Of a DNA stretch of 64,000 bases, positions 9,523-61,112 are shown one piece after another (positions within the stretch are counted from its first letter, which is position 1; every line of letters starts with the position of its first letter). The notes under the pieces are model-generated. The model did not search any database and was not told the DNA's origin. It saw only the letters and a list, made by a program, of their open reading frames with translations. The translations under genes and the position numbers were made by a program. This DNA comes from a virus. Lineage: Duplodnaviria; Heunggongvirae; Uroviricota; Caudoviricetes. The DNA lies in the IMG/VR virus record IMGVR_UViG_3300028887_000066, positions 243,550 to 307,549 of that record; one strand, written 5' to 3'.

Positions 9523-9534
9523 CTATGATATTAG

Positions 9535-9616
9535 ACTCCGTAGTTGGATTTGAACCAACGTGTGCAACGCAAATGGTTTTGCAGACCATCCCTATCGACC
9601 CCTCAGGCATACGGAG
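9535..9616 (-). tRNA. tRNA, type II-like (13-nt variable arm), apparent anticodon GCA (Cys)
   Basis: Manual fold: acceptor CTCCGTA/TACGGAG, anticodon stem ATGGT/ACCAT with loop CTGCAAA, variable arm TTGCGTTGCACAC, T-arm GTTGG-TTCAAAT-CCAAC. Confidence 0.55.
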
Positions 9617-10035
9617 GTAAAAATTCTAAAACATTACGTTTCATTCGGCGAAACCGTATAACGCTTGTTTTTAATGAACAAGTGATGAAACTTATCCGAC
9701 GTATCGGAAAGGACAAACCATTTGTACGTTTTCCATCAGCCGTAACGCTTTAGGAGGATTTCCTGGTAATCTTGCTCGGTTTCATTAAGCATCCTCGGGC
9801 CCAACTACATTCCCTATTCCACCTTTACCGTCTACACCGTGGTCAAATGGAAAAAACCACGATATGCTTCTCTCTTAACGTCTTTTCTAGGATAGACCTG
9901 AGTTTTTCGAACCGCTCCTCCTGCATCTGTCCTGATATGTTTGACAGCACCCATATAAAACTTCGGAGGAGGCAAACTATATAAATATACGCACTCCCTA
10001 GAACACCTACACTGATGTTGTGTAGCCCTATCGTG

Positions 10036-10107
10036 CGGCCTATGCAGGGATCGAACCCGCGACGTTTCCTTTTAGGGAGGACTGCTCTGCCACTGAGCTA
10101 ATAGACC
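10036..10107 (-). tRNA. candidate amber suppressor tRNA (anticodon CUA)
   Basis: Manual fold: acceptor GGTCTAT/ATAGGCC, D-arm GCTC-AGTGGCA-GAGC, anticodon stem GTCCT/AGGAA with loop CCCTAAA (positions 34-36 = CTA, A37), T-arm GCGGG-TTCGATC-CCTGC. C33 instead of U33 is atypical. Confidence 0.5.
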
Positions 10108-10147
10108 TTTCAATTAGGGAGCATTGTATCTCCCCGATTGTTTTTGC

Positions 10148-10185
10148 ATTGCAAAGATAAGGCATTTTATTGGAATGGCCAAATT
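10148..10185 (-). promoter_or_regulatory. Bacteroidetes-type promoter (TTTGGCCAT..20 nt..TATCTTTG) reading leftward into the suppressor tRNA
   Basis: caaagata (10151-10158) and tggccaaa (10176-10183) on plus = -7 and -33 on the minus strand. Confidence 0.65.
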
Positions 10186-10204
10186 TCTTTGCAAAAATGT
10201 TCAT

Positions 10205-10531
10205 TCAAAGAATTTCGACTACTTTTCCGTAGATGTTATTCCGACTTATTACCCCATTGGCGTGACCGTGATTGTTGCCGATCAAATACCTGTCACCAGG
10301 TTTTACCGACCATATCAAATGAAGATAATAGTGTCCGTTCACCTTACATAGTACAATATCGCGTTTCTTTAATTCAGTAGCATCATTCACGGGAATACAA
10401 ATTACAGGCTGCTTTGATTTCAGAATAGGCAACATACTATTACCTATACCAGTGATTTTAGCTACTTTCCCCTGTCTTAATGCTTCAGCGGAATACTTAT
10501 TCTCAAACCCTTCATATTCAACATTCCACAT
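10205..10531 (-). CDS. S24-family (LexA/UmuD-like) serine peptidase domain protein, no DNA-binding domain
   Basis: GNSMLP (Ser nucleophile motif) and a downstream Lys (LCKVNG); 108 aa standalone catalytic domain. Confidence 0.6.
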   Translation of the reverse strand: MWNVEYEGFENKYSAEALRQGKVAKITGIGNSMLPILKSKQPVICIPVNDATELKKRDIVLCKVNGHYYLHLIWSVKPGDRYLIGNNHGHANGVISRNNIYGKVVEIL

Positions 10532-11192
10532 AATCTAAGGTTTTAATCAAGTGCCACAATGACATTATACTTTCAACGTAGTTTTTCTTTTGTGTTTCCA
10601 TACTGTATGTATCACCCGTACCACCGTGTGTAGAGCCAAAATTGAATTTTATCTCCTCAGGCTTTCCGTAATCTGGATTTTTCGGATTTTCATTCTCATT
10701 ATGCAAGAATTCACGATACTCATTCTTAGTGCAGGTTTTATAGGCGTAACAATACTCATTATGACTTAAAAGATACAGTGTGTGTTCCGACACTTGCTTG
10801 TAGATGTCTTTTTTGTCCCTGTTTTTTCTGTCATAACAGTAGATGGATATAGGCATATCGTTATTTTCTTCATAACTTTGATATGTTCCGAAACGACCAT
10901 TACGCTCTTTTAGCACTTTCTGAAATGTGTCCCTTTTTCTTACAACAAAGTCGTCATCACTATAATTTAGAACATTCTTAAATGGCTCTAATTCTGAATA
11001 AAAAGTATTTGAGTACCCTCTGTTCTTCAGCATTTTTTCGCACTTATTAACCTGTTCTGTGATGTACTTCAATGCTTCATCCTCACTGAGGTTGTGCTTT
11101 ATACAGTAATAAACTACATGTGTGTGGTGATATACGTCCCACTTTCTCTCGGTCATCCAATTTTTCAGGAAAATATAACTATTGTTTTTCAT
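10518..11192 (-). CDS. hypothetical protein (224 aa)
   Basis: ORF. Confidence 0.6.
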   Translation of the reverse strand: MKNNSYIFLKNWMTERKWDVYHHTHVVYYCIKHNLSEDEALKYITEQVNKCEKMLKNRGYSNTFYSELEPFKNVLNYSDDDFVVRKRDTFQKVLKERNGRFGTYQSYEENNDMPISIYCYDRKNRDKKDIYKQVSEHTLYLLSHNEYCYAYKTCTKNEYREFLHNENENPKNPDYGKPEEIKFNFGSTHGGTGDTYSMETQKKNYVESIMSLWHLIKTLDYVEC

Positions 11193-11421
11193 AATTTTAA
11201 TCGTATTTGTAAAAAGTAATTATTGTTTTTAATGTGTGATCAATTTTTAACTGAAAAATCAATCGAAAAAAGCAAAATCCCATTTCAAAATACGATTATC
11301 GGATAACCACGGATTTTAGTAACCTACCATTTCTGTCTTTTCATAAATTCAGACGTTTTTTAATTAATGATTATTTTCTTTAGAATTAACATTACAAATA
11401 TACAAATCGTTTTGCATATTG

Positions 11422-11493
11422 TAGGCCGCGCAGGGGTCGAACCTGCCATCTTCTGATCCAGAGTCAGACGTGTTACCACTACACCAGCAGCCT
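11422..11493 (-). tRNA. tRNA-Gln (anticodon CUG)
   Basis: Manual fold: acceptor AGGCTGC/GCGGCCT, D-stem GTGT/ACAC, anticodon stem TCTGA/TCAGA, loop CTCTGGA, T-arm GCAGG-TTCGACC-CCTGC. Confidence 0.8.
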
Positions 11494-11503
11494 GTTTATT
11501 GAG

Positions 11504-11577
11504 TAGGGACGAAGAGGGTCAAACTCTTACCTTTTGGTTCAAAGCCAAATGTGCAGAAGTCGCTACACCACATCCCT
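11504..11577 (-). tRNA. tRNA-Gln (anticodon UUG), atypical D-loop
   Basis: Acceptor AGGGATG/CGTCCCT, anticodon stem TTTGG/CCAAA with loop CTTTGAA, T-arm AAGAG-TTTGACC-CTCTT; the D-loop lacks GG. Confidence 0.5.
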
Positions 11578-11719
11578 ATAAAATACTACGGATAAAATAT
11601 ATGACTTACCTCGGCGGGCCGCATACTCGACCACTTCACCACCTACCAGATCTGTCCTCGTTTAGTATGATAAGAGAGTATGGCAACTTATAATCAAATA
11701 TATTGATCAGTAGTATTAG

Positions 11720-11792
11720 TACGCCTAACAGGATTCGAACCCGTATAAAACACTTTAGAAGAGTGTTGCCTAATCCATTCGGCCACAGGCGC
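11720..11792 (-). tRNA. tRNA-Arg (anticodon UCU)
   Basis: Anticodon stem ACACT/AGTGT, loop CTTCTAA, T-arm ACGGG-TTCGAAT-CCTGT, acceptor GCGCCTG/TAGGCGT. Confidence 0.75.
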
Positions 11793-11798
11793 GTTTTG

Positions 11799-11870
11799 TA
11801 CCCCGACCCAGAATCGAACTGGAAACTAAATCTTAGGAGGATTTTGTTATATCCATTTAACTATCAGGGC
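11799..11870 (-). tRNA. tRNA-Arg (anticodon CCU)
   Basis: D-stem GTTA/TAAC, anticodon stem AAATC/GATTT, loop CTCCTAA, T-arm TCCAG-TTCGATT-CTGGG. Confidence 0.7.
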
Positions 11871-11885
11871 TTTAACATTGTTTAG

Positions 11886-11972
11886 TAGCGCGTATGGGAT
11901 TCGAACCCATGAGGGCGTTTTATGCCCACTACATTGAAAGTGTAGCGACCTAGACCACTAGTCCAACGCGCC
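11886..11972 (-). tRNA. tRNA with Glu anticodon UUC but an 18-nt stem-loop variable arm (type II architecture)
   Basis: Acceptor GGCGCGT/ACGCGCT, anticodon stem CTACA/TGTAG with loop CTTTCAA, variable arm TGGGCATAAAACGCCCTC (GGGC/GCCC stem), T-arm ATGGG-TTCGAAT-CCCAT. Confidence 0.55.
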
Positions 11973-11980
11973 ATATATTG

Positions 11981-12054
11981 TAGCGGTAGCGAGGCTCAAA
12001 CTCGCAATCTCCACATTGAGAGTGTGGTGACTTAATCAGTTCGTCTATACCGCC
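11981..12054 (-). tRNA. tRNA-Glu (anticodon CUC)
   Basis: Acceptor GGCGGTA/TACCGCT, anticodon stem CCACA/TGTGG with loop CTCTCAA, T-arm GCGAG-TTTGAGC-CTCGC. Confidence 0.65.
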
Positions 12055-13306: not shown

Positions 13307-13316
13307 AACCCTTAAC

Positions 13317-26172: not shown

Positions 26173-26514
26173 CTATTCACGCTGATTATAATTCTTTTCT
26201 ACGTATTCCCACAATTTTTCATCTGTTGAAAGGTCTATGGGTGTACCGTCCTTTTCCCAAGCAAAATATTCCTTTTCTTCATTTCCGCTTTTCTTGCTCT
26301 TCTCCAACAGACGAGGAGCATCATACAACGCCCACGAAATCCAATCCCATCCATCTTCTCCGTAGGCTTCTGTAAATGCCAATGCCTGCAACGCCCAATA
26401 TGACTTGCACAATTCAGTGTCAATAATGTCAATTCCGAGCTTTCTCAATGTTTCAATATCATTATCCGTTTTGCGGATAGTATCAAGCACCTCTTTGAAT
26501 TTCTCTAATTTCAT
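26173..26514 (-). CDS. hypothetical protein (113 aa)
   Basis: ORF. Confidence 0.5.
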   Translation of the reverse strand: MKLEKFKEVLDTIRKTDNDIETLRKLGIDIIDTELCKSYWALQALAFTEAYGEDGWDWISWALYDAPRLLEKSKKSGNEEKEYFAWEKDGTPIDLSTDEKLWEYVEKNYNQRE

Positions 26515-27026
26515 GCCTTAATATATTTAGTATCTACAAACTTAGTGAGCCAAACTCCATTGTTACTCAAATAAAACTTGTTTCCGTCGTTATGCATCGT
26601 TTTTGCGTCAATTACCAATACAATTGGCTTACCGTGCCTCTTTCCTACATTAATGGCAGTATCCGCATCAGCGGACAAATGTACATGCAGCCTTGTTCCG
26701 CTGTTTATTCCGCTTTTCATAATGGAATCCAAAAAACGTGTAGCCGTACCGTGATATAATGTATCAGGAGGTGTCATTTCCTTCAATTCCACATTAACTT
26801 CCACACTATGCCCTTGTCTTGCACGGATATATTTTCTGTCTTCAGAATACTCAAATCGTTTTTTGTTGTTAGTTTCAACGATTTCATCAAGTATTTCAGG
26901 TGTATAGCCGTGATTTCTTAACAAATCATCAACCTCACGCCAACCATGCTCGTCAAATTTATACTCTTTATCGTGTCTGAGAAGAAAAGCTAATTCCTTA
27001 CCTTTTTCAATTACTATATTTTTCAT
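26511..27026 (-). CDS. kptA: RNA 2'-phosphotransferase (Tpt1/KptA family)
   Basis: LRHDKEYKFDEHGW..KKRFEYS..IRARQGHSVEV..LYHGTATRFLDSI..RLHVHLSADADTAINVGKRHGKPIVLVIDA..GVWLT match Tpt1 conserved blocks. Confidence 0.85.
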   Translation of the reverse strand: MKNIVIEKGKELAFLLRHDKEYKFDEHGWREVDDLLRNHGYTPEILDEIVETNNKKRFEYSEDRKYIRARQGHSVEVNVELKEMTPPDTLYHGTATRFLDSIMKSGINSGTRLHVHLSADADTAINVGKRHGKPIVLVIDAKTMHNDGNKFYLSNNGVWLTKFVDTKYIKA

Positions 27027-30635: not shown

Positions 30636-31479
30636 GTAACTTATCCTCTATTATCTTATATTCATTCGTCAGATGTTTGATCAATCTTGGCTTTCCTAAA
30701 TTATCATAGTATTCCTTAACCATCTCACAACCAATAAAATTCCTATTCGTTTTGATACAGGCTACGCCAGTAGTAAAGCCGCCGCCAAACGGGTCAAAAA
30801 CCAAGTCGCCATCAACGCTCCAACTGAGTATATGGTCAATTGCCAATTGTAATGGAAATGCCGCATTATGTCTAAATTCTTTATCACCGTCCTTAGATAC
30901 GTTATTCTGCTTCCATATATTATTCCTTACGCTGAATTCAGGTACTGGATTAATGAACTTTTTCTTTGAATTAACCAAATCACCTTTTTGATTCCTTTGG
31001 CTCTGCTGTCCAAAATTAGTATGCCCAAACCATTTATTAGGTTTATCTTTAATTAATGTGTAATCAGTCCTTGGTTTACCCTTACAAAAGACAAACATAT
31101 ATTCAAATATTTGGCTGTATCGTCGGCTATTCGGTTTTACGGGAAATGAACTTGTATCTTTTTCCCATATCATTGTGTCTAAAATCTTAAAGCCTATCTC
31201 TTTGAAATATAACGCCTGTTTAAATGATGTTCCTGTTTCAGAGCCGTCTATAACCGCATCATTGCATATCCAAACAATACAGCATCCATCATTCATTACC
31301 TTATACAAATGATCAGCAACATCTTTGAAAATTTCAAAATTCCATTCATCACCAACACCTTGATATGATCTTAAATTGTCATATGGAGGGGATGTTACGA
31401 CTAAATCTGCCTTGATGCCTCTTTCTATCATTTCATCCATTACATCAATGCAGTTCCTGTTAAAAATATTAATAACCAC
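30613..31479 (-). CDS. DNA methyltransferase (N6-adenine/N4-cytosine, beta class), orphan
   Basis: VVTSPPYDNLRSYQ (S/DPPY motif); no adjacent restriction endonuclease recognised. Confidence 0.85.
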   Translation of the reverse strand: MVINIFNRNCIDVMDEMIERGIKADLVVTSPPYDNLRSYQGVGDEWNFEIFKDVADHLYKVMNDGCCIVWICNDAVIDGSETGTSFKQALYFKEIGFKILDTMIWEKDTSSFPVKPNSRRYSQIFEYMFVFCKGKPRTDYTLIKDKPNKWFGHTNFGQQSQRNQKGDLVNSKKKFINPVPEFSVRNNIWKQNNVSKDGDKEFRHNAAFPLQLAIDHILSWSVDGDLVFDPFGGGFTTGVACIKTNRNFIGCEMVKEYYDNLGKPRLIKHLTNEYKIIEDKLLGKNETE

Positions 31480-37013: not shown

Positions 37014-37847
37014 TTATATTCGATCGGGTATAAATTTGACAATCTTACCGTTTTCTATTGTAAATAATTGTTTACAGTCAAGACAGGCAAAATACTTATC
37101 GATTATTGGCTCCGCAAGTTTATCCGTATACCCATTTGCATATATTTCTTTTTCCATTTCGTATGAAATACGCTGTGAATGCCCGAAAACTTGATACCAC
37201 CCTCTGAATTCATAACTATAGGGTGTTAGCTCATCCCAATGCGCCCAAATAAACGAGCCATACGGATAACGCCCGCCGCGTGATCTCGATACTGTACCAA
37301 GTGGGGCGATAATACTGTCAATATTATCTGACAATGCCTTATTTAGTGTATCGGCAATATCAGGAATATTAGCAGGCTTTTTGAATATTTTTGGGAGTTT
37401 GTCGTACTTTTGCCGTGTATTAACGTATTCTATCCATTTTTTCAATAAACAACTGTGAGAAAATAAGAATTTCTGCCCATCCTGTTCAGTGTACCATATT
37501 AGACTAAACTTCGACATGTTTTCATGAAACATTGCCCTGATGTCGTCAAGATGTTTATAATCAGTACGACAAGCAGGCATATCGTCGCTTATATAGGGGC
37601 CGAAATCGTGATTTCCTAACAATAATAGCACATTATCAGGAAATTTGTCCTTAAAATCAAGTATTTCTTCAAAATTGGCTATAGCATCTTCTTTTGTTAT
37701 ACCTTCCCAAGGATATGGATCCAAATAATCCCCAAGAAAAACCACAAACGCATTAGAATGTTCTTTAACATATTCTACCACAGGTTTCCAAAATGTGCGG
37801 CCATGTACATCAGGGACTATAATTATCTTTCTTTCTTTACTGTTCAT
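37014..37847 (-). CDS. calcineurin-like metallophosphoesterase (PPP/ApaH-lambda phosphatase-like)
   Basis: VPDVHG, FLGDYLD and GNHD motifs. Confidence 0.85.
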   Translation of the reverse strand: MNSKERKIIIVPDVHGRTFWKPVVEYVKEHSNAFVVFLGDYLDPYPWEGITKEDAIANFEEILDFKDKFPDNVLLLLGNHDFGPYISDDMPACRTDYKHLDDIRAMFHENMSKFSLIWYTEQDGQKFLFSHSCLLKKWIEYVNTRQKYDKLPKIFKKPANIPDIADTLNKALSDNIDSIIAPLGTVSRSRGGRYPYGSFIWAHWDELTPYSYEFRGWYQVFGHSQRISYEMEKEIYANGYTDKLAEPIIDKYFACLDCKQLFTIENGKIVKFIPDRI

Positions 37848-42650: not shown

Positions 42651-44006
42651 TCACTCAATGGTTATACCTATCTTTTTCACGTACTCAGCAACAAGCTTTT
42701 TCATGAACTGTTCACCATTGAATCCCGCTTCAAGGAACTTGAGCAAGTATGGGCTGTATCCTGACATAAAGACGTTACCATCCTTATCCACCTCAGGACA
42801 GGTCTTATTCCTTGAATTCAGATTCCACCAAACAATTTTCGTCTTAAAGCCGTTTTGTTGGAAGATGCGCATTGTCTCGTCCTTTGACTGTTTTGAACCA
42901 CAGTCAAATTCCATGTCACTGAGGACGACCAACCACTCAGGGGCGTTTTTAGCATCAAGACCCTTCAACAGACGCATTACAGCCGCAAAATCTGTATTAC
43001 TGCAATCACCCGTGTACATCGAGGCAATTTCGCGCTCATATTGGTTCTTGCAATGGCTAAGATTCTGACGATGCGTCCTTACACCCCATCCATAAGAAGT
43101 AACCTCATTTTCGACACCAAGCTCAAGCAATTGAGGATTGGACGAGAAAGAGACCACCTTGTTAGGTGCATATGTAGAACACTTTGAAAGGTAATGCCCG
43201 ATAGCAATAGCCTTTCCATAGGAATCATTACCATCCTGCATAGAGCCTGACGAGTCGATAACAGGAATCCAACTTCCACTGATTTTCTCTATCTTGTCGA
43301 AGAAAAGATCTGGATCAATCTTAGTACGATTCTTATAGATGTCATACACGGTCGTAGTGGAAATCTTCATTTCCTTCTTGCCATCCTTGACATCGGCAAG
43401 GTACTTCTCAAAACGGGCCTTTGTATCCTCCTTTTTGAGGAAACGCTGATAATATTTGATCAACGCAAGCGAAGGAACATGCTCGAACTCAATTTCCTCT
43501 GTGTTCTTACGGGATAATTTGTTTTCCACGGTATCACACTTGATGAACTTGCCATACTGCTGCTTATTCATACCCCAATACTTTGCAATCTCACGGGCGA
43601 CCATCAGATTCTTTGAGGAATAACGTGGCATCCACTTCTTAGCAAGCTCATTACCCTTCTTGATTTCATCCTTCAAGTAATCAAGTGCCTCATTAAAAGC
43701 TGCCGTACCATGAAACATAGTCCAAACATCATCAAAACGTCCTGCCAACACCATATCAGTAATGGAGACATGCGCCTGCTTCATCAATTCACGTCCAAGG
43801 TCACGCTTTCCAAGACCGTATCGTGGGTCACGGACAAACATTGCGAATGCCTTTTCAAAAGCTGACGTACCTATACGTACCTCATCAACATGCTTCTGAA
43901 AATACTCTGTCATAAACAGCAAGTCCAACAGTGGATTCAATGTAGACTTGTAGGAAACATCACCGTTTTCTGTCAACTTCTGGTTGAAAATTTCTTCTAA
44001 ATTCAT
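42651..44006 (-). CDS. von Willebrand factor A (MIDAS) domain protein, DUF2828-like
   Basis: MIDAS motif VIDSSGSM (DxSxS) around residue 250. Confidence 0.65.
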   Translation of the reverse strand: MNLEEIFNQKLTENGDVSYKSTLNPLLDLLFMTEYFQKHVDEVRIGTSAFEKAFAMFVRDPRYGLGKRDLGRELMKQAHVSITDMVLAGRFDDVWTMFHGTAAFNEALDYLKDEIKKGNELAKKWMPRYSSKNLMVAREIAKYWGMNKQQYGKFIKCDTVENKLSRKNTEEIEFEHVPSLALIKYYQRFLKKEDTKARFEKYLADVKDGKKEMKISTTTVYDIYKNRTKIDPDLFFDKIEKISGSWIPVIDSSGSMQDGNDSYGKAIAIGHYLSKCSTYAPNKVVSFSSNPQLLELGVENEVTSYGWGVRTHRQNLSHCKNQYEREIASMYTGDCSNTDFAAVMRLLKGLDAKNAPEWLVVLSDMEFDCGSKQSKDETMRIFQQNGFKTKIVWWNLNSRNKTCPEVDKDGNVFMSGYSPYLLKFLEAGFNGEQFMKKLVAEYVKKIGITIE

Positions 44007-44101: not shown

Positions 44102-44725
44102 TCAATCCCACCAATAATCAGTATATCGCTCCCTCACTTTGTAATATATATGTCGTGCTTTTGCCATATAATATTCATGATCATAGTTTCCGCTTTTGAA
44201 AATATTAGACTCTAACAGGGCTTTATTTAAGAAACGCTTTGCATTCCTCTTATTCACATATGGGCCGTCATAGCGATAAATTAATTTATCTGTCTTTATT
44301 TCAGAAAGACCCATATTTGAATCACCTACCTGTTTCACAGGCCCATACTCAACGTTCCCGTCATAATGGAAATAATCTGTTTCATTATTGAGTACATGAA
44401 TGCAATGTTTCGCCCATTTCAAGGAACGCATAATTTCATTATATTGCTCATCAACCATTAGCTGATGATGCTTAAACCAATGCAATTGTTTATCTATTTG
44501 CCTCTCTTCAAGCTCAAGAATGAAACCCCCATCCCAAGGATATGTCACAAACGCTTGTTTGATCAATCTCCAATGATACTTATTGAAATTACAATAGAAC
44601 CAATGATACATTGTTCTGTATGCCGACTTTGGTTTATCCCAAATGTACCATAGTATATTGTCGTCTATCCAATCACATACCTTGTTGGACTTACATTTTT
44701 TGTACCACCAATCGCTTATTTTCAT
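44102..44725 (-). CDS. Trp-rich hypothetical protein (207 aa)
   Basis: ORF. Confidence 0.55.
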   Translation of the reverse strand: MKISDWWYKKCKSNKVCDWIDDNILWYIWDKPKSAYRTMYHWFYCNFNKYHWRLIKQAFVTYPWDGGFILELEERQIDKQLHWFKHHQLMVDEQYNEIMRSLKWAKHCIHVLNNETDYFHYDGNVEYGPVKQVGDSNMGLSEIKTDKLIYRYDGPYVNKRNAKRFLNKALLESNIFKSGNYDHEYYMAKARHIYYKVRERYTDYWWD

Positions 44726-44853: not shown

Positions 44854-45651
44854 TTATCTTTTTGGTATAATGTTCAATTGATCAAAATATTCGTTAGTAA
44901 ACAATTCAGCATAATGGGCTTTCCATATGCTCCTTTCATATGAAACAGGTTCACCTTTTATTGTCGTGTTAAATGTTTCTGTTTCCTTGTATACGATACG
45001 CCCGTACTTCTTTCCATTATCCAACGCATTCCAATCGACATCCTTCTCATTGTTCAACAATTCAATTTGTTCATCGGCTTTCAAACCCACAAGTCTTTTA
45101 TGCGGAAGATATGTCTGTGCAGTCTGTTGTTTTGAATTACGCAGACAATCGTTCTGTCGATAAAGCAACCACGCAAATACGTCATTATATGTCGGTACTG
45201 TCCATACTTTGCAATCAAATTGTACAATAGGTTCAGATGCTATGATTTGTTTCAAATCATTATTTGAACATGGGACATTACATACTCTAAGTATGTTTAA
45301 TTGATTAAACTTAGCCGTTGCCAATGACGCTATTATCGACTGCATCTTACATAGTCTGAAACCGAAAAATGAATCACTTTCAGGTGTGTCAAAATCGGTA
45401 ATTACAAGACTAATCTCATCAGACTGTACATACGCTGTCTTACAGCCCTGTATTTCCTTACAAAGATATTCAGCCGTCTCATTCATCATACGGATAAATT
45501 CATCGTCAAACGGACGTTCAAAACGCTTTTTGACAAGTTTTGAAAATGAGCGTCCATCAATATGTGCCAGTACATACGAATTTGGCGTAAGTCTATAATC
45601 ATAGATGGATTTATAATACTCCATCCTTTCCTTTAGATTATTAAATTGCAT
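44854..45651 (-). CDS. Thg1-like protein (tRNA-His guanylyltransferase family, 3'-5' nucleotide addition)
   Basis: YVLAHIDGRSFSKLVKKRFERPFDDEFIRMM .. AYVQSDEISLV .. LATAKFN match Thg1 catalytic blocks (RIDGRxF, SDE); start refined to Met at 45651. Confidence 0.8.
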   Translation of the reverse strand: MQFNNLKERMEYYKSIYDYRLTPNSYVLAHIDGRSFSKLVKKRFERPFDDEFIRMMNETAEYLCKEIQGCKTAYVQSDEISLVITDFDTPESDSFFGFRLCKMQSIIASLATAKFNQLNILRVCNVPCSNNDLKQIIASEPIVQFDCKVWTVPTYNDVFAWLLYRQNDCLRNSKQQTAQTYLPHKRLVGLKADEQIELLNNEKDVDWNALDNGKKYGRIVYKETETFNTTIKGEPVSYERSIWKAHYAELFTNEYFDQLNIIPKR

Positions 45652-45753
45652 ATGTTTTTTAATTAATACATTGCAAATATACGGCAAAAAAATAGAACCA
45701 CCAAAATATTTCATTGATGGTTCTATCCATGATTATGAAAAAAGTAAAAAACA

Positions 45754-47628
45754 TTAAACCTCTTCTGCTTTCTGAGTACCCCCTGTAAATCCTGAGAAAA
45801 TATCATTCAGGGGATTTCCATCACCTTGTGGATTACTTCCTTGATACATCTTCTGGGTAATCGGATACCAAGTTTGCTCAAGCTCTTTCTGACAAGTTTC
45901 TACAAGACTGACATCTTTTGCCTCAATCGCCTTCTTTAAAGCCTCAATCTTTGGTGTAAGAGTGTTCTTATCATCATCGGTAAGTTTATCACCCATTTCC
46001 TCCATAGATTTTTCAATAGCAAAAATCAAACCGTCAGCATTGTTTAGTTTATCGGCGTTTTCCTTCTTTTTTCTGTCAGCCTCCGCATTTGCCTCTGCTT
46101 CAGCTTTCATACGCTCGATTTCTTCATCGGTAATACTGCTTTTTGATTCAATAGTGATATGCTGTTCCTTATTAGTCGCTTTATCAACAGCAGTTACACT
46201 CAAAACCCCATTAACATCCATATCAAAAGTGACTTCAATCTGAGGCACACCTTTTCTTGCGGGAGCAATCCCATCAAGATTAAAAATACCTATTGTTTTG
46301 TTGTCTACGGCCATTGGACGATTGCCTTGTAGTACCTTTATTTGTACACCTGGCTGATTATCCTGTGCTGTACTGAAAGTTTGTGATTTTTTGGTAGGTA
46401 TCGTTGTATTAGCCTCAATGATGTTCGTCATAACACCCCCTATTGTCTCGATGCCTAAATTCAATGGTGTCACATCAAGTAACAAAACATCCTTATTATC
46501 ACCAGCGATAATTGAACCTTGAACCGCAGCACCAAGAGCTACAATCTCATCAGGATTGACATTTTTAATAAGCTGAACCCCAAATTCCTTCGTGAGCATT
46601 TCCTGAACATAAGGAATTCGTGTAGAACCACCTACGAGAATAATACCAGTAAGTTCATTCGCCATAATGCCTGAATTTGATAAAGCTGTTTTACCACAAC
46701 CTATAACCTTTTTGATTTCATTTGAAATGAGTTTTTCAAATTTGGCACGTGTAACACTGATATTCAAATGCTGTGGAACCCCGTCTTTAGCGGTAATGTA
46801 TGGAATATTAATATCTGTTGTGGTACTATTTGAAAGCTCCATTTTAGCTTTTTCAGCGGCCTCCACGACACGTGTCATTGCCATAGGATCAACAGAAAGG
46901 TCGATACCTGTATCACTTTTAAATGAATTAACAATGTCGTCACACAAAAGCTTAGTAAGGTCTGAACCTCCACAATACACATCACCATACGAACTCAATA
47001 TCTCAACAACACCATCAGAAATGTCGGCAATGGAGAAATCCAATGTTGAGCCACCGTAATCGGCAACCATATATTTACCACCTTTAGCCATATCAATGCC
47101 AGAAGCAAGAATTGCCGCTGTAGGTTCTGCGACGATACGACGTACATTTAGTCCAGCAATTTGACCAGCTTTAATGGTGGCTTCACGTGCTTCATTATCG
47201 AACATAGCAGGTACGGTAATAACAGCCTCTGTAACCTCCTCCCCAAGATAATCTTCTGCTGTCTTCTTTAATTTTTGAAGTATCATTGCGGAAATTTCTT
47301 CAGGGGAATACTCCCTATCACCAATTGCAATTCTTGGGTAGCCATTAACGTTTTTCACATCATACTCAATATGAGCGAAATTGTCTTTTACATTCTCATA
47401 AGTACCACCCATGAAACGTTTAATAAGAACTACTGTATTCTTGGGGTTGGTGATTGCTTGACGTTGTGCCGAAGCCCCGACCTTGCGTGTTCCGTCTTTA
47501 TCAAAAAATACTACAGACGGAGTTGTCCTATTTCCTTCATCATTGACAATAATCACTGGGCTATTACCCTCCATTACAGAGACTTCGCTAAGGGTACTAC
47601 CCAAATCAATTCCAATAATCTTTCCCAT
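45754..47628 (-). CDS. dnaK: Hsp70 chaperone DnaK
   Basis: [18 protein letters not shown] .. [11 protein letters not shown] .. full-length 624 aa with a C-terminal EEV-like tail. Confidence 0.95.
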
Positions 47629-48597: not shown

Positions 48598-49327
48598 TTT
48601 CTCCGATTATCAATTCTTTCGCATATGGCAAACTTTCAACCCACTTACAGAATTCACCCCAATCTTCCTTCAGCTTATGATGCTTTCTTTGATGGTACAT
48701 TGTCTGCAACTGTTTATAGTTCGTCGATACCCGCACAAACAATTCAGCACCCATAGGGCAATTGGAAATAATGAGCATGAATGCCGTATATACAGTATCC
48801 TCGTATCCGATGGTCTTAATAGAATTCTCGCCATTCTTGAACTCCCAACTTGAAGGTCTGAATTCGACTATATGGTTATATTGATTTACAAGCGTCTGCA
48901 TCGTCTGTATGTTACTGTTCAAGACATACTTATTGCAACACTTGCTGAAATTCATCTTCGTAATCCTATGCATCATTGATGATGACGACACATAATCAAA
49001 CCAATGATAACGCTGCATCTGCTTTGTGATATATTGGCTGTATTTCATATCAACAGATACTCTGATTCCTGTCAGATAGTTATCATGACACTTAACATTC
49101 TTGCTATTATTACTTGCCTCTACAAGTTTTTTTGCCCTGTCAAGACTTTTTTCAAACTCTTCATCAGTATATTCTACAGGTTCAAGTCTCATCGCATTCC
49201 TACATGCGATTACAGATTCCTTGAGATCATATACTTTTGTATTTCTAAACTCTAACATGTAAACATTTGTTTTTCTATTTTTTATAAACATTAGCCCCGA
49301 CTCCGCCAAGAATAACAAATTCAGCAT
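48587..49327 (-). CDS. hypothetical protein (246 aa)
   Basis: ORF. Confidence 0.55.
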   Translation of the reverse strand: MLNLLFLAESGLMFIKNRKTNVYMLEFRNTKVYDLKESVIACRNAMRLEPVEYTDEEFEKSLDRAKKLVEASNNSKNVKCHDNYLTGIRVSVDMKYSQYITKQMQRYHWFDYVSSSSMMHRITKMNFSKCCNKYVLNSNIQTMQTLVNQYNHIVEFRPSSWEFKNGENSIKTIGYEDTVYTAFMLIISNCPMGAELFVRVSTNYKQLQTMYHQRKHHKLKEDWGEFCKWVESLPYAKELIIGENDA

Positions 49328-50384
49328 TTTTGAAATCGGACAATGTTTTACTATTGGTATAGCTCATCGAACTCCTTAAATAGGAGTCCATATTCTCAAT
49401 CCAATGTGACACAGGATACTTAACCTCAACGGGTTTGCAAATACCTTCAGACACTTTTGATCCGTCACCTCCCGTAATCATTTGCATTGAGCGGTGCGAC
49501 ATACCAGAATACATCCTATAAGGCGTAAGTGTATCCTTTATTGATACATCAAGATTGTATAATTCATCAGGGAAATATCCGATGTCTAAAGTAAAATCTT
49601 CTTCTGACATACAATATAGGACTTTGCCACAAGCTTCTTCACACTCAGCAAATAATTTCCCTATCATTACGGCATCAGCACCTAATGCAAGAGCTTTATT
49701 GATGTCATCATACCATTCAATTCCGCCGTCCAATATAATTTTAGTATACTCGCAATGGCAATCCTTGTCAAACTTAATGTATTTTTTCTTTTCTTCTATT
49801 AACTCATCCACCAACGATGCGGCAGGAAAATGAATACCTAACGCACAACTACTTGTGCATCTACTACCGCCACCGATAGAAACACGTATCCAATCCACAC
49901 AAGCTTCACATAATTCACTGTAAATGTGAGGATTAGCAATATTACCCGTCATAACCTCCACTCTTTCGCCATATGAATTCTTAATACGTTTACACACATT
50001 AAGAAGTTTCCTCATATGCCCATTTGCAAGATCAATACAGATGTATTTCTTTTCAAAACCCGTATCCTCATATTCTGAGAATTCTTCTGCTTCAGATAAT
50101 GACAAAGATACAAATGTTTCATCGGCAAGGTTAATTCTCTCTTCCAAGCTAAGTCTCTGTTGAACTGAACGTGGGATAACGGGTGTTAATTTGTTCTCTA
50201 TCCATTTAGTATAATTGAATTCGTCAGTAACAGCCGCCATCGGAGCCACAAAAATAGGATAGCTTTCTCTCCCACAAATTTTCGTGAATGGGTTTACGTC
50301 TTTTCTGCTATCGATTTCTGTAATACTCGCAGGGATAATAGCCACATCTTTCAGGCTATAGCAAATTTTGTTCAATTTACTCAT
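49275..50384 (-). CDS. IMP dehydrogenase/GMP reductase family protein (GuaC-like, no CBS domains)
   Basis: ICIDLANGH, GNIANPHIYSELCEACVDWIRVSIGGGSRCTSS (catalytic Cys loop), ILDGGIEWYDDINKALALGADAVMIG. Confidence 0.75.
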   Translation of the reverse strand: MSKLNKICYSLKDVAIIPASITEIDSRKDVNPFTKICGRESYPIFVAPMAAVTDEFNYTKWIENKLTPVIPRSVQQRLSLEERINLADETFVSLSLSEAEEFSEYEDTGFEKKYICIDLANGHMRKLLNVCKRIKNSYGERVEVMTGNIANPHIYSELCEACVDWIRVSIGGGSRCTSSCALGIHFPAASLVDELIEEKKKYIKFDKDCHCEYTKIILDGGIEWYDDINKALALGADAVMIGKLFAECEEACGKVLYCMSEEDFTLDIGYFPDELYNLDVSIKDTLTPYRMYSGMSHRSMQMITGGDGSKVSEGICKPVEVKYPVSHWIENMDSYLRSSMSYTNSKTLSDFKNAEFVILGGVGANVYKK

Positions 50385-50475
50385 TTCTGTATAAATTTCA
50401 ATCAAAATAAATATACAAAAAATTAGGGATACACAATACTGCATACCCCTTTAATGACTTTCTCTGATCAATGAT

Positions 50476-51308: not shown

Positions 51309-52010
51309 TTAACTTTTTTTCATATCGAATATGATAGGACTATAAGCAACTTCGTATTTTTCATTAAGTATCGATGCATTAGCTATTTTAATTCCTTCAT
51401 ATTCTGTTATTTTTTTAAGAGGCGAAGAATGAATATGCCCAAAAAACACGTATTTTGGTTTCCTGTCCAACACGTATTTAGCAAGTACCTCATTTCCAAA
51501 ATTCCTACCATTTACGTCGCCTTCAGTAGCCATTCCACCATTTAAAATATCAGGGGCATCGTGTGTAACAAGAATGTCAAGCCCATATGGTATGAAATCA
51601 TAGTATCTCTCCAAATTATCCCGTGTAAACGGCCATCTTGGTAAAGGTTTACAATATGGGCAACCAAAAATCTTATATACTACGCCATCATTCTTGAAAT
51701 CAAATTCCTCATTATCAAGATATATGAGACGGTTATCCTTAATATTTGAAAGCCATTCGTTTTTCTGTTTGTTGCTAATTCCTTCCAAGAAAAACGAATG
51801 ATTTCCCGCTATCATTACTACCTTAGATTCAGAATTCCTATATGGCAATTTATTTATCCAATCAGAGAATGTGGTATTTAGCCATTCTTTATGAAACTGT
51901 CTGCTCTGATTCCATACAGGTTCGCCATCACCACACATGATCAAAAGATCAAATTCTTCTTTAATTGGTATCAAATTTCCATGTAAATCACTTATTACAA
52001 TAACTTTCAT
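51309..52010 (-). CDS. calcineurin-like metallophosphoesterase
   Basis: VISDLHGN, MCGDGE, AGNHSF, GHIH motifs. Confidence 0.85.
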   Translation of the reverse strand: MKVIVISDLHGNLIPIKEEFDLLIMCGDGEPVWNQSRQFHKEWLNTTFSDWINKLPYRNSESKVVMIAGNHSFFLEGISNKQKNEWLSNIKDNRLIYLDNEEFDFKNDGVVYKIFGCPYCKPLPRWPFTRDNLERYYDFIPYGLDILVTHDAPDILNGGMATEGDVNGRNFGNEVLAKYVLDRKPKYVFFGHIHSSPLKKITEYEGIKIANASILNEKYEVAYSPIIFDMKKS

Positions 52011-52861: not shown

Positions 52862-53353
52862 CTAACTATTAAAATTCTGAGTCCATTCCTGACTAAACCA
52901 AACATTATCTGGTATGCCGCCGAAACGTTTTCCCGCCTCCTTGAACATATTTATCAATTCGCGCCCTGTGTAACCGCACAATGTCTTTTCATTCGGCTGA
53001 TTACGGTATGCCACCTTGAATTTCATATTCGGATTTTCTTTGGCACATACATACATGTCAACGATGTTTCTTACAATTGTTTCCTGATCAATGCTTGGGC
53101 GGTAGTTTTTGGTGAGGTCTGTTGTCGGTAGAGCGTATGAATTACCGACTAAACCCTTTCCAACGCCATACTTTGCTCCAAAATACTTATGCGCCGCTGC
53201 TGCTGAACCAGCACCATGACGACCTTCAGGATTACTACCGAACACGAAAATCGTATCGGCGGATGGGCTTATATTGCCTGTATATGTATTCATTTTCAAT
53301 ATTTTTTTAAAGTTACAAAAATTATTCCAATTGTTTAGCGGTTTCAGGGTCAT
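52862..53353 (-). CDS. hypothetical protein with Gly-rich Rossmann-like N-terminus (FVFGSNPEGRHGAGSAAAA)
   Basis: ORF; family not recognised. Confidence 0.5.
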   Translation of the reverse strand: MTLKPLNNWNNFCNFKKILKMNTYTGNISPSADTIFVFGSNPEGRHGAGSAAAAHKYFGAKYGVGKGLVGNSYALPTTDLTKNYRPSIDQETIVRNIVDMYVCAKENPNMKFKVAYRNQPNEKTLCGYTGRELINMFKEAGKRFGGIPDNVWFSQEWTQNFNS

Positions 53354-54002
53354 ATTTTTTATACAACTCTGTCATCCACCACTTAGTTTTGAACTTTACT
53401 TTCGGAAGTCTTTGCCCTTTCATCAACGTTGTGCGTCGGCAAACGACCCCTTCTTTTACATTAGGGTATTGGCAACCTTCCTGAGTCCAGTCATTGTCCT
53501 GAATCGACTTTATAAAGTCTTTTGTTAATTTTCCTCTGTATATCAGTTCTGGTTGTATTATTTCCTTATGTGAATAAAACAGCTCAATTAGGGGTTTAAA
53601 CTCGATATATCCTTTCTTTTTCAAAAATACATCTATCAATGCCAGCCTAAGTTCATCACCGTCTTCATGAAAACCTGCAAAGGAATGGTCTCCATACCAC
53701 TCAAAATAGAATGTGACTTCATCAATGCCATTAAACAGACCCTTCTTTCCTGAATTTTCGGTGACTATTCTTGAAAGCAGGTCAGGGTAGCATGAATTAT
53801 TAAACCATTTAACGGCATCACCAAATTGTTCATCATTTTCATCAAATACTCGCTTACGCGACCCAAACTGTTCAAACGCTTTCCTTTTCGGAGAATATTT
53901 TATGCACACGTTCTGTCCGTCAAGCTTATTGAATGCAGCTATTTCTTCTCCAAGTAATGTTCCATCGTCTTGTATTCTGTTTATACTATCGTAATGCTTC
54001 AT
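53322..54002 (-). CDS. ATP-dependent RNA ligase, Rnl2-like nucleotidyltransferase domain only
   Basis: Motif I FNKLDGQNVCIKY (KxDGxN), motif III-like FYFEWYG, motif IV EGVVCR, motif V KVKFKTK. Confidence 0.7.
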   Translation of the reverse strand: MKHYDSINRIQDDGTLLGEEIAAFNKLDGQNVCIKYSPKRKAFEQFGSRKRVFDENDEQFGDAVKWFNNSCYPDLLSRIVTENSGKKGLFNGIDEVTFYFEWYGDHSFAGFHEDGDELRLALIDVFLKKKGYIEFKPLIELFYSHKEIIQPELIYRGKLTKDFIKSIQDNDWTQEGCQYPNVKEGVVCRRTTLMKGQRLPKVKFKTKWWMTELYKKYDPETAKQLE

Positions 54003-54945
54003 TTTTAAAAGTCCCCTCAATTCTTTTATAGTATTCTGCGTATTTTTCAGATTTGACTATATCTCTAGTCCGCCTTGCAACCCCATAGTCAATATCTATT
54101 ACATCACTAAATGTATGTGTTTCATCCATAATGTAAATTCTTTGGGACAAAAATAACGCCTCAGAAATATCATGCGTTATCATTATAAATGTCCTGTCTA
54201 TTTTTTGATCATAGAATATCTTGAGGAGAATGTCCTGCATTGCAGCCTTTGATGCGATGTCCAATCCTGAAGAATATTCGTCAAGCACAAGAATTTGTGA
54301 ATCGGATGCCAAAGACCTTGCCAATGCGACGCGCTGTAATTGACCTCCTGACAATGGTGGCATTTTTGCCCATTTATCTTCGTGTCCCTTCAACCCCACC
54401 AGATCAATAAGCTCTAATGCTTTCTCTTTTGCCACCTTTTTGTCAATGCCTTTCATCTTCATAGGAAGCATTACATTTTCTAACACACTCATCCATTCAA
54501 AAGACGAATACTGCTGAAATACCGTAGGCACAAACGTTTTGTCAGTATATGGCTTACCATACATCAATACCTCCCCTTCATTTGGCTTTGTCAAACCTGA
54601 TATAATACGACTTAACTGTGTCTTTCCTGAGCCTGATTTACCCATAATGGTAATAAACTGTCCCATACCCTTAAAATCAGGTATCCTAAAATTAAGTTTA
54701 TCAAAAAGTGTGAAATTACCAAACTTTAAAGTAATGTCTTTCAGATTAATGACATCCAACGGCTCACACTCATAAATTCCGTCCATGACAGCTTTTTCAT
54801 TGTTTTCCTCGACAGTTGTAGGCTCAGTATTATTTTGCGCCTCAGAAGGCTTTAAAATGGCTCCTGCGATACTTTCAGATGTGTTATCAACCGTGGATAC
54901 CTTCGTATTTTCAGGTTCCTTGAACAATGTATCAAATTTTCCCAT
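53986..54945 (-). CDS. ABC transporter ATP-binding protein (NitT/TauT-like)
   Basis: Walker A GKSGSGKT, signature LSGGQLQRVALARSL, Walker B ILVLDE. Confidence 0.9.
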   Translation of the reverse strand: MGKFDTLFKEPENTKVSTVDNTSESIAGAILKPSEAQNNTEPTTVEENNEKAVMDGIYECEPLDVINLKDITLKFGNFTLFDKLNFRIPDFKGMGQFITIMGKSGSGKTQLSRIISGLTKPNEGEVLMYGKPYTDKTFVPTVFQQYSSFEWMSVLENVMLPMKMKGIDKKVAKEKALELIDLVGLKGHEDKWAKMPPLSGGQLQRVALARSLASDSQILVLDEYSSGLDIASKAAMQDILLKIFYDQKIDRTFIMITHDISEALFLSQRIYIMDETHTFSDVIDIDYGVARRTRDIVKSEKYAEYYKRIEGTFKNEALR

Positions 54946-54951
54946 AAATTA

Positions 54952-55785
54952 TTATTTATTATACTTGAATGGAAACAGTTTTTTTGAGAAATAAGTAAAC
55001 GCCATATCTTGTAGCGTACCAATTATGATGATTATAAACAAAAGAGCGAATGCTTCTGCCATGTACGATTGCCGTATCATCGTGTTTATCAATGCGCCGA
55101 TTCCGCTAATCGAACCATCTTTATATATCATTTCAGCGATAACCACATATGTATAACTGATCGCCGTCAAATTTATAATATCATTTACTATCCCGCTTGT
55201 TACATATGGAAAATATACATAGCGGAATTTTTGCCACTTATTAGCCCCTAATGTTTGTATTGTTTGTAGATAAACATTATCCTTAACATTACTTGGGTTT
55301 TGTAGGTCGTTAATTTTATTTACCACAGTAGGTATAATATAAATCATAATGGCCACGGTAAGAAACCACGTCTTCATTTCAAATGTCAGTCCCCAAATAA
55401 CGATAAAAATACTTGAAACCGCAGGTAATGGCAAAAATCTTACGCTGTTTATACTTTTTCCAAATAAGATATTGTTAATTGGGTATAATGCCAAGAAAAA
55501 GCCTATCGGTAAAGACAATAGGATGGCATAAACATAACACATAAGGTTAAGTTTTACCGTAAACCAAATATTAGCAAATAAATGATTATCAGTGATAAGA
55601 CCACCAATCGATGTAATTACATTAAACGGGTCTGGAAGCACCTTAGGTGAAACCAATTCAAATGCTGCAATAAAATGCCATAGCATAATGATGATGGTGA
55701 AACCGATAACAGTAATAATGCTGTTATTCAATACACCAAAATCACTATCCCCACCAAATTTGAAGAGTTTTTTGAACAAATTCAT
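54952..55785 (-). CDS. ABC transporter permease
   Basis: Six TM helices, binding-protein-dependent permease topology. Confidence 0.8.
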   Translation of the reverse strand: MNLFKKLFKFGGDSDFGVLNNSIITVIGFTIIIMLWHFIAAFELVSPKVLPDPFNVITSIGGLITDNHLFANIWFTVKLNLMCYVYAILLSLPIGFFLALYPINNILFGKSINSVRFLPLPAVSSIFIVIWGLTFEMKTWFLTVAIMIYIIPTVVNKINDLQNPSNVKDNVYLQTIQTLGANKWQKFRYVYFPYVTSGIVNDIINLTAISYTYVVIAEMIYKDGSISGIGALINTMIRQSYMAEAFALLFIIIIIGTLQDMAFTYFSKKLFPFKYNK

Positions 55786-55982
55786 TATTTATTTCTATTG
55801 ATTAAAATTGTTTCGCCACAATTAGGGCAGTTTATCGAATCTTTGACAACCGTTTCTCTTGCTATTCTGTTAACAAGTTCTTGATCATGTTCATTTATTA
55901 ACGACGACCATAATACAACGGTTATAAATGCCATTACTAAAACTAATAGGATACCTCCTATAACCTGAAACACTGTTTTCAT
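55785..55982 (-). CDS. small membrane protein with CxxC zinc-ribbon
   Basis: TM helix + CPNCGE. Confidence 0.4.
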   Translation of the reverse strand: MKTVFQVIGGILLVLVMAFITVVLWSSLINEHDQELVNRIARETVVKDSINCPNCGETILINRNK

Positions 55983-56054
55983 ATTTTGGAAAATTTGAGG
56001 GAGATGCTTACAATACCCTGAAAAACACCTCCCTCTTTATTATTTATGGAAAAC

Positions 56055-59983: not shown

Positions 59984-60181
59984 TTAATTTTGTTTATTGT
60001 TAAATTTTTCACATATCTCTCCAAAAGGTAAATTCCATATATCAGTGTTACTTAATAGCCATTCACATATTTCGTGGGAGTATTTTGAATCACCAAATGT
60101 ATGAATAATATCATAGCACAAATCAAAGTTTATACCATATTTGACACAATATTGCACTGTGATTTCATTATAGCCATTCAT
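59984..60181 (-). CDS. hypothetical small protein (65 aa)
   Basis: ORF. Confidence 0.4.
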   Translation of the reverse strand: MNGYNEITVQYCVKYGINFDLCYDIIHTFGDSKYSHEICEWLLSNTDIWNLPFGEICEKFNNKQN

Positions 60182-61044: not shown

Positions 61045-61074
61045 AACGCTGAACTTGTTTTTCTTTTGATTACA

Positions 61075-61112
61075 ATGCAAAGATAAGGCTTTTTCCCCAA
61101 TTAGCCAAATAA
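61075..61112 (-). promoter_or_regulatory. Bacteroidetes-type promoter (TTTGGCTAA..20 nt..TATCTTTG)
   Basis: caaagata 61078-61085 and tagccaaa 61102-61109. Confidence 0.6.

Follow-up and report, generated by a model that had tools for sequence, protein, structure and literature searches.

We describe a phage-encoded member of the superfamily of Thg1 enzymes and Thg1-like proteins (TLPs), found on the minus strand of a 64,000-nucleotide stretch of a caudovirus genome (IMG/VR record IMGVR_UViG_3300028887_000066, positions 243,550 to 307,549), which we refer to throughout as the window. To our knowledge, the Thg1/TLP enzymes are the sole known polymerases that work in the 3'-5' direction. What is new here is that the protein belongs to a megaphage clade in which the pocket for the incoming nucleoside triphosphate (NTP) appears to have been rewired throughout, and that members of this clade are frequently linked to RNA-repair genes. 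We propose that the protein probably carries out templated repair of tRNA 5' ends within a megaphage RNA-repair toolkit; its enzymatic activity, tRNA as the substrate and the biological trigger are what we infer from the comparisons presented below.

The protein, its catalytic core and its nucleotide pocket

The product is a member of the Thg1/TLP superfamily with a palm-domain fold. It matches Pfam PF04446 (Thg1) with 92 bits against a cut-off of 29.2 (E=3.8e-26) over profile positions 2-130 of 130, and phrog_4717, 'tRNA-His guanylyltransferase', with E=7.4e-60. When solved structures in the PDB are ranked by sequence, the TLP of Bacillus thuringiensis (BtTLP, 4KGK) comes first with E=1.4e-31, followed by the Candida (8e-9), human (1e-6) and yeast Thg1 proteins and the Methanosarcina TLP, and a profile search gave the same order. 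An AlphaFold2 model built from 65 homologues has a mean predicted local distance difference test score (pLDDT) of 93.4 and a predicted template-modelling score (pTM) of 0.90. The top 32 Foldseek matches of this model in the PDB are all Thg1/TLP chains (E 3e-21 to 2e-11), the next match standing at E=0.02, and the first rank is again held by BtTLP (E=3e-21, TM 0.85 on the target). The claim of the first-pass annotation, made from the sequence alone, that a Thg1-like enzyme is encoded in a phage is thus borne out by family profile, closest structure and fold.

Within the superfamily the product is, judging from its motifs, a bacterial/archaeal-type TLP and not a eukaryotic Thg1. The HINNLYN motif is specific to eukaryotes, contacts the GUG anticodon and is required only for non-templated addition of G-1 opposite A73 (PMC6471195; 10.1101/2025.10.12.681950). 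At its site the phage protein reads CLRNSKQQT, and RPFD stands at the site of the eukaryotic KPND. Because these motifs are missing and the protein is closer to BtTLP, it is best read as a TLP, of which only Watson-Crick templated additions are expected. BtTLP and MaTLP prefer 5'-truncated tRNAs over G-1 addition by 5- to 160-fold and act on non-His tRNAs (PMC3061083). The first-pass annotation had likewise pictured an enzyme of bacterial or archaeal type in a phage with its own tRNAs, in agreement with the TLP motifs and with the eight tRNA genes of the window.

The gene and the segments of the protein that matter most for catalysis are the following (residues are counted from the start codon at 45651).

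44854..45651, minus strand: coding sequence of the TLP, 265 amino acids (aa), stop codon TAA, delimited and identified by PF04446, BtTLP, the starts of homologues and AlphaFold2/Foldseek
45544..45564, minus strand: HIDGRSF block, residues 30-36, with the metal ligand D32 (45556-45558) and with H30 at the site of the canonical Arg (R27 in Thg1, R28 in BtTLP)
45409..45423, minus strand: SDEIS block, residues 77-81, with S77 (activation), D78 (metal ligand) and E79 (third carboxylate), invariant in all sequences compared
45610..45612, minus strand: codon of K14, at the position of canonical E12 (BtTLP) or E13 (yeast); R/K/Q in the megaphage clade
45346..45357, minus strand: R99-L-C-K102, where K102 corresponds to K99 of BtTLP or K96 of yeast and R99 is a clade-specific invariant Arg
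45208..45210, minus strand: codon of K148, at the position of canonical R131 (BtTLP) or R133 (yeast)

Conservation of individual residues was scored in 121 close homologues and in approximately 130 representatives of clusters formed at 50% identity. The carboxylates D30, D75 and E76 of BtTLP correspond to D29, D76 and E77 of the human enzyme hTHG1 (PMC3701042), and their equivalents in the phage protein are D32, D78 and E79. Both the HIDGRSF and the SDEIS block named in the first-pass annotation are present, and the loss of the three carboxylates that it had envisaged finds no counterpart in the alignments, where they are invariant in about 250 relatives. In the two sets together D32, S77, D78, E79, K102, D146, R165, D168 and N172 are invariant or nearly so; R165, D168 and N172, themselves invariant, are the R147/D150/N154 helix that faces the incoming NTP. 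Among the positions of the activation step, S77, P47 and D49 are present, and K44 is replaced by R46, at a site where members of the clade have K, L or R. More than 1500 relatives were found, and the clade, whose members share 52-69% identity with the query in pairwise comparison, keeps some 30 positions invariant, a pattern of clade-wide purifying selection.

The residues that hold the incoming nucleotide are where the protein departs from its family. In BtTLP two arginines, R28 and R131, bind the incoming GTP at its alpha and gamma phosphates and are bridged by E12, K99 reaches the triphosphate from the neighbouring subunit and R16 is another gamma-phosphate ligand (PMC3701042). Alanine variants of R27 and R133 in the yeast enzyme are severely impaired in nucleotidyl transfer, and E13 is also important (PMC3701042); R27, K95, D128, R130 and R147 are listed among the residues conserved across the enzymes compared in a recent study (10.1101/2025.10.12.681950). 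At these nucleotidyl-transfer sites the phage protein has K14 (for E13), H30 (for R27) and K148 (for R130/R133), with K102 (K95/96) kept. The substitutions are shared by its close homologues: position 14 is R in 103 and K in 18 of the 121 sequences, position 30 is M in 96, H in 16, F in 6 and R in none, and position 148, which is R in all canonical relatives, is K in 119.

The cluster representatives split cleanly along the same lines. All those that fall below some 42% identity to the query carry E/R/R at the three positions, as do BtTLP and Candida Thg1, and the closer ones carry (R/K/Q)/(M/H/F)/K. We refer to the canonical relatives as class I and to the rewired megaphage clade as class II. 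A search for further class-discriminating columns returned position 99, three residues ahead of K102, where every class II sequence (100%) has R and most of class I has N, and the position of BtTLP R16, where the clade has D18. A neighbour-joining tree in which the six signature columns had been masked still groups 59 of 63 clade members, the query included, in one pure clade. Also specific to the clade is a helical insertion of approximately 20 residues at about 118-140, before the FDCK strand. The site of the activation Lys (K43 in BtTLP) is variable, and 36 of the 121 close homologues have L there.

A tally of the charged residues in the pocket sets R28, R131, K99', R16' and E12 of the canonical enzyme against K/R14, K148, K102', R99' and D18' of the clade, and the net charge is equal. 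Since the net charge is the same, the change looks like a compensated rewiring rather than decay, and on the same ground we predict that the enzyme retains activity, possibly with altered nucleotide handling. The departure at E13, R27 and R130 weakens the label of a 'canonical TLP' for this protein and leaves its membership of the superfamily intact.

Genomic setting, tRNA genes and the proposed role

The genes nearest to the TLP, and the two repair genes of the window that recur near TLPs elsewhere, are listed below.

45754-47628, minus strand: Hsp70/DnaK, directly upstream of the TLP, full-length, E=1.5e-202
44102-44725, minus strand: Trp/Tyr/His-rich protein of 207 aa, directly downstream of the TLP, with no Pfam or PHROG match
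42651-44006, minus strand: DUF2828/DUF7788 protein of 451 aa, two genes downstream of the TLP, phrog_850 'RNA-binding protein'
53322..54020, minus strand: RNA ligase (PF09414, phrog_548), 7.7 kb upstream of the TLP on the same strand
26511..27026, minus strand: Tpt1/KptA RNA 2'-phosphotransferase (PF01885, E=6e-44; phrog_5470), 18 kb from the TLP

A Pol-beta nucleotidyltransferase and two metallophosphoesterases are also encoded in the window. Homologues of the RNA ligase, 55-61% identical, adjoin the TLP or lie near it in six related loci (L003, L004, L140, L143, L146 and L147), and in L147 a Tpt1 homologue lies 0.7 kb from the TLP. Two huge-phage contigs, L140 (388 kb, 284-14442) and L143 (364 kb, 3975-13267), have a compact row of genes for an HD+AAA_33 kinase, a CCA-adding enzyme, a tRNA-ligase-type CPD, RlaP, RNA ligase, the TLP and RNase T. 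When the window is counted together with 14 related loci, one or more RNA-repair genes fall within the fetched flank in 10 of these 15 class II loci. Because the repair genes of the window and of the Lak-A1 megaphage (one of the Prevotella 'Lak' megaphages, the closest phage records) are scattered, the link between the TLP and RNA-repair genes is a loose functional association and not an operon. PDB sequence searches with the DUF2828 protein and with the RNA ligase returned no matches.

In the mechanism that we propose, which is modelled on BtTLP and MaTLP, the phage enzyme would bind a tRNA that lacks one or more 5' nucleotides and would either activate the 5'-monophosphate with ATP or GTP or use a 5'-triphosphate directly. 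It would then add the missing nucleotides singly in the 3'-5' direction, each selected by Watson-Crick pairing with the 3' strand of the acceptor stem, and stop once the stem has been completed. Its partners in the toolkit would be the RNA ligase and Tpt1 and, in related genomes, the HD-kinase, CCA-adding enzyme, CPD, RlaP and RNase T. Such a toolkit may ensure that the tRNAs of phage and host stay usable when an infection is prolonged or when tRNA nucleases of the host attack them.

Several points weigh against this reading. The Arg equivalent to R27/R28, whose replacement by Ala in the yeast enzyme is severely harmful to nucleotidyl transfer, is absent from the clade. At the site of the activation Lys (K43/K44) this protein has R, and about 30% of the clade has L. 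Compared with BtTLP, the enzyme may therefore be altered in activity or specificity. The immediate neighbours of the TLP (Hsp70, the 207-aa protein and the DUF2828 protein) are not RNA-repair enzymes, and a conserved operon was rejected as an explanation of the arrangement because these three genes are not found beside the TLP in relatives. The only recurrence of the 207-aa protein is in one contig of a metagenome-assembled genome (MAG), L145, where a protein of 23% identity (E=1e-9) occupies the same place after the TLP (4191-4679). In Lak-A1 the repair genes are dispersed over approximately 200 kb. We know of no nuclease that trims tRNA 5' ends in Prevotella, so that the damage to be repaired is hypothetical, and our literature search found no paper assaying any phage TLP.

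The tRNA genes bear on which substrates are plausible. Those of the window, none of which is tRNA-His in the ARAGORN and Rfam scans of its 64 kb, as the first-pass annotation had stated, form a single array:

9534..12054, minus strand: array of eight tRNA genes (Cys, suppressor-CUA, two Gln, two Arg and two Glu; ARAGORN and Rfam), candidate substrates

The tRNA with anticodon CUA, at 10035-10107 on the minus strand, is labelled 'Pyl' by ARAGORN and is an amber suppressor like those of the TAG-recoding Lak phages. TAG recoding is not needed for the TLP or for any open reading frame (ORF) of at least 150 aa in the window, where read-through extensions would amount to a few codons. Two isoacceptors are unusual: tRNA-Glu(UUC) at 11885-11972 (minus) is 88 nt long with a base-paired long variable arm (Rfam 58 bits), and tRNA-Cys(GCA) at 9534-9616 (minus) is 83 nt long with a variable region of 12 nt (Rfam 52 bits). 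Both tRNA-Gln genes have A1-U72, six of the eight tRNAs end in A73 followed by C, and CCA is encoded in none of the eight.

The chief alternative to general repair is an enzyme dedicated to tRNA-His, one that adds or restores G-1 opposite C73 on the phage or host tRNA-His for charging by histidyl-tRNA synthetase (HisRS). BtTLP performs this reaction efficiently, with a kcat/KM of 5500 M-1 s-1 (PMC3061083), and DdiTLP2, a Dictyostelium TLP that also departs from conserved residues, is a dedicated G-1 enzyme for mitochondrial tRNA-His (10.1101/2025.10.12.681950). A phage substrate exists in the relatives. The Lak-A1 genome, assembled from eleven 50-kb pieces for the tRNA scan, has 32 tRNAs including one tRNA-His(GUG) at 108271-108344 (L008 8471-8544). 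Conservation of this gene extends across Lak A, B and C, where the anticodon stem shows a compensatory change, to five further metagenomic contigs. Its acceptor stem consists of 5'-GGUCCGUC paired with ACGUGACC-3' in seven Watson-Crick pairs and one bulged U in the 3' strand. This irregular stem is invariant in 12 copies (L008, L017, L018, L019, L068 and L184-L190); the T stem has a C49·A65 opposition, and the Rfam score is only 31.7 bits.

The bulge allows two ways of counting. By helix length the first G is G+1, the C is the discriminator and no G-1 is encoded, which would suit an enzyme devoted to tRNA-His. Infernal, in contrast, places U8 nine bases past the first G, which makes that G position -1. 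Moreover, the pairing C is followed by a variable base (C or A) and then by unrelated sequence, as in a 3' trailer. Taken together, the placement of U8 and this variable base make it most likely that the gene of the Lak tRNA-His already includes G-1, opposite C73 in the bacterial manner. This register rests on those two features and not on covariation: a metagenome scan yielded seven copies of tRNA-His with an invariant acceptor stem and no covariation, and a pattern scan for the anticodon arm in viral sequences was too unspecific. If G-1 is encoded in this way, its addition would not be obligatory, which makes general 5'-end repair likelier than obligatory G-1 addition. Two further observations point away from a dedicated enzyme. 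There is no tRNA gene within the fetched flanks (3-10 kb) of the TLP in the 14 related loci, nor a tRNA-His in the window, and the linkage of the TLP is to general RNA-repair genes. We therefore consider exclusive service to tRNA-His rather unlikely. The first-pass annotation had left the choice between 5'-end repair and G-1 addition to a phage tRNA-His; the first of these is now the best supported by the recurrent linkage to RNA repair, and the second is weakened by the G-1 that the Lak tRNA-His most likely encodes.

The rewired pocket invites a more far-reaching interpretation. Lak-like megaphages may possess a monophyletic 3'-5' polymerase class of their own, with a rebuilt pocket that has lost the equivalents of R27 and E13 and gained basic residues at positions 14 and 99, and perhaps a specificity (for the nucleotide, the activation step or the substrate) unlike that of every characterised Thg1/TLP, possibly as a counter-defence against an undescribed host nuclease that cuts tRNA 5' ends; as far as the sequences let us judge, this is an unlikely proposition. 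Also unlikely is a changed reaction as such, in which the enzyme would act on another RNA (non-tRNA ends, as suggested for DdiTLP4), use another or a non-canonical nucleotide, or accept 5'-triphosphate ends only, without activation. The correlated clade-wide swap of BtTLP E12/R28/R131/R16 to R/K/Q, M/H, K and D, accompanied by the invariant R99, speaks for such a change, as do the clade-specific insertion and the activation Lys, which the 36 sequences with L mark as dispensable in the clade; in BtTLP this Lys (K43) is required for ATP-dependent and not for GTP-dependent activation (PMC3701042). On the other hand, K102, D146, R165, D168, N172 and the whole C-terminal domain are kept, the conserved net charge of the pocket looks like compensation rather than new function, and the RNA-repair context suits ordinary tRNA repair.

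Programmed 5' editing of phage tRNAs, as in amoeboid mitochondria, where a nuclease strips poorly paired 5' nucleotides and the TLP rewrites them from the 3' strand (for example, G1·U72 to A1-U72), is very improbable here. A G1·U72 wobble does occur in four of the eight window tRNAs (Arg-UCU, Arg-CCU, Glu-UUC and Glu-CUC; 11719-12054) and in 5 of the 32 Lak-A1 tRNAs, and a few Lak-A1 tRNAs have mismatches at 1:72. However, G·U is a legal pair, true mismatches in acceptor pairs 1-3 are rare, unlike in the edited mitochondrial sets (3 of the 40 tRNAs of the window and Lak-A1, one of them initiator-like), and no candidate editing nuclease was identified beside the TLP. That a cellular gene was once captured and now persists only in an inactive or decaying state, as the missing equivalents of R27 and E13 (reported as essential in yeast Thg1) might suggest, is scarcely credible given the more than 1500 relatives, the retention in the clade of every metal ligand and some 30 invariant positions, the intact ORF with a promoter-like box and the confident structural model; conservation and fold led us to reject this explanation together with that of a chance motif match.

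Gene start, phage lineage and other genes of the window

The mechanically defined ORF around the TLP spans 44854..45714 on the minus strand and encodes 286 aa, and the interval 44854..45651 begins at its internal Met22. The 120 closest database relatives are mostly 258-275 aa long, covering approximately 93% of the 286-aa query, and all close homologues inspected start with MxFxxL(E/K)(D/E)(K/R), aligned to MQFNNLKER of the query. Because the close homologues all begin there and have similar lengths, the alignment identifies Met22 as the real start. The segment upstream most likely goes untranslated and has the features given here.

45652..45714, minus strand: in-frame upstream extension of 21 codons, matched by no homologue, which contains a promoter-like box
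45674..45681, minus strand: TATATTTG, a Bacteroidota-type -7 promoter-like box, 23 nt upstream of the ATG at 45651
2489, 12618, 18355, 31479, 36895, 59275 and 62997, minus strand: ORF starts with TATATTTG upstream
2511, 12636, 18376, 31518, 36917, 45674, 59305 and 63023, minus strand: start positions of the TATATTTG 8-mer

At least eight other ORFs on the minus strand of the window have the octamer 18-39 nt ahead of their start. In all, it has 18 copies on the minus (coding) strand versus 8 on the plus strand, and several further minus-strand copies flank the tRNA array. It fits TAnnTTTG, which we take to be the Bacteroidota -7 promoter consensus, and is probably a -7 promoter element of the phage. 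The looser TAnnTTTG pattern is weakly enriched (100 matches versus 84 expected by chance), for which reason we word this assignment with caution.

The closest phage records are those of the Lak megaphages (540-552 kb), whose TLPs are 51-53% identical to the query over the whole protein; the DUF2828 protein two genes from the TLP has 64% identity to its Lak-A1 counterpart. On these identities the phage of the window represents a distinct, fairly distant Lak-like lineage, an origin with which its eight tRNA genes, the CUA suppressor among them, are consistent. Metagenomic contigs with close homologues of the TLP reach 216-388 kb. In a scan of one genome per GTDB species, clade-like TLPs (at least 51% identity) occurred on five contigs only, of 44-360 kb, from gut or rumen MAGs of conflicting taxonomy (Paludibacteraceae, 'Mycoplasmatota', Clostridia and Bacilli), and the next matches, at 38% identity or less, were ordinary bacterial and archaeal TLPs. 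The five contigs are presumably mis-binned phage, and the rewired clade appears to be restricted to megaphages.

Phage TLPs as such are already known, contrary to the novelty implied by the first-pass annotation. Thg1 homologues are present in 152 of 50,697 phage records (Bacillus, Mycobacterium, Caulobacter, Erwinia and other phages), often annotated as 'tRNA-His guanylyltransferase', and have a PHROG of their own; a caudovirus Thg1 was noted by Anantharaman et al. 2010 (PMC2904730), and Iyer et al. 2021 (PMC7824862) discussed Thg1 among the RNA-repair enzymes of jumbo phages, as restoring nucleotides at tRNA 5' ends. Our literature search found no paper describing megaphage TLPs, and the megaphage clade with replaced family-conserved residues is, as far as the searchable literature shows, undescribed.

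Other genes of the window are recorded here as observations in their own right. A GrpE nucleotide-exchange factor (24334-24822, minus, E=5e-32), 21 kb from the TLP, is encoded in addition to the phage Hsp70, to which the Lak-A1 Hsp70 is 51% identical. A YqeY/GatB-like protein is encoded at 21957-22469 (minus, E=5e-23) and the Pol-beta-type nucleotidyltransferase at 16358-17116 (minus); with Tpt1 they make up additional RNA- or tRNA-related functions dispersed over the window. Nucleotide-metabolism genes at 49275-50444, 51309-52010, 37014-37847, 19880-20695, 63107-63736 and 62072-62674, all on the minus strand, comprise an IMPDH/GMP-reductase-like protein, two calcineurin-like metallophosphoesterases, two NUDIX hydrolases and a cytidylyltransferase-like (NMNAT-like) protein; in L144 the Metallophos-IMPDH pair is found immediately upstream of the TLP as well. 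An ABC transporter set at 53986-57584 (minus) consists of an ATPase (PF00005), a permease (BPD_transp_1) and a substrate-binding protein of 509 aa that is NMT1/THI5-like and carries a fused OmpA domain. A GmrSD_N-domain protein (DUF262-type) at 60178-61080 (minus) and an N6/N4 DNA methylase at 30613-31479 (minus), beside a UvrD-type helicase (28503-30635), possibly have functions in DNA modification or anti-restriction.

Significance and comparison with known systems

A large and apparently phage-restricted TLP clade situated amid genes for RNA ligase, kinase, CCA-adding enzyme, RlaP and Tpt1 offers a setting in which to ask about damage to tRNA 5' ends during infection. Its residue swaps at constant net charge amount to a natural experiment on how the NTP is held in reverse polymerisation, and the clade is possibly useful for engineering TLPs as 5'-labelling tools. 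Should the enzyme turn out to be a TLP of the ordinary repair kind, the result reduces to a gene correctly annotated.

The best match in both sequence and structure is BtTLP (4KGK/4KGM), at 34-35% identity and in the same length class. The two proteins share the carboxylates, a KPFD-type loop (RPFD in the phage), the R147/D150/N154 helix and the lack of HINNLYN. They differ at E12, R28, R131, R16, N96 and K43 of BtTLP, which are K14, H30, K148, D18, R99 and R46 in the phage protein, and the latter has in addition a longer C-terminal tail and, ahead of the FDCK strand, the helical insertion of about 20 residues; moreover, BtTLP is a cellular enzyme whereas the protein described here is encoded by a phage. 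The TLPs of phrog_4717 (Bacillus phage BCP78 gp146, Rhodococcus phage Weasels2 gp231 and Bacillus phage G gp378) are likewise phage-encoded and are 33-39% identical to it, and Weasels2 has an RNA ligase and a phosphoesterase near its TLP. Unlike the megaphage clade, which forms a separate branch, those of BCP78 and Weasels2 keep the canonical E/R/R triad. The orthologues in Lak-A1, A2, B1-B9 and C1 (GenBank MK250015-29, unannotated) belong to the same clade and carry the same signature, at 51-53% full-length identity, but their genomic neighbourhood is different.

Eukaryotic Thg1 (human 3OTB/7CV1, Candida 3WBZ and yeast 5XOX) has the same fold and metal ligands. Identity to it is only 18-22%, and the phage protein is without HINNLYN and the Asn of KPND; it should therefore neither add a non-templated G-1 opposite A73 nor read the GUG anticodon. 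Dictyostelium TLP2 is similar in that it, too, departs from family-conserved residues, with a specialised job (10.1101/2025.10.12.681950), but its departures are in the KPXD loop and at D150, whereas in the megaphage clade P47, D49 and D168 are retained and the changes fall at R27, E13 and R130.

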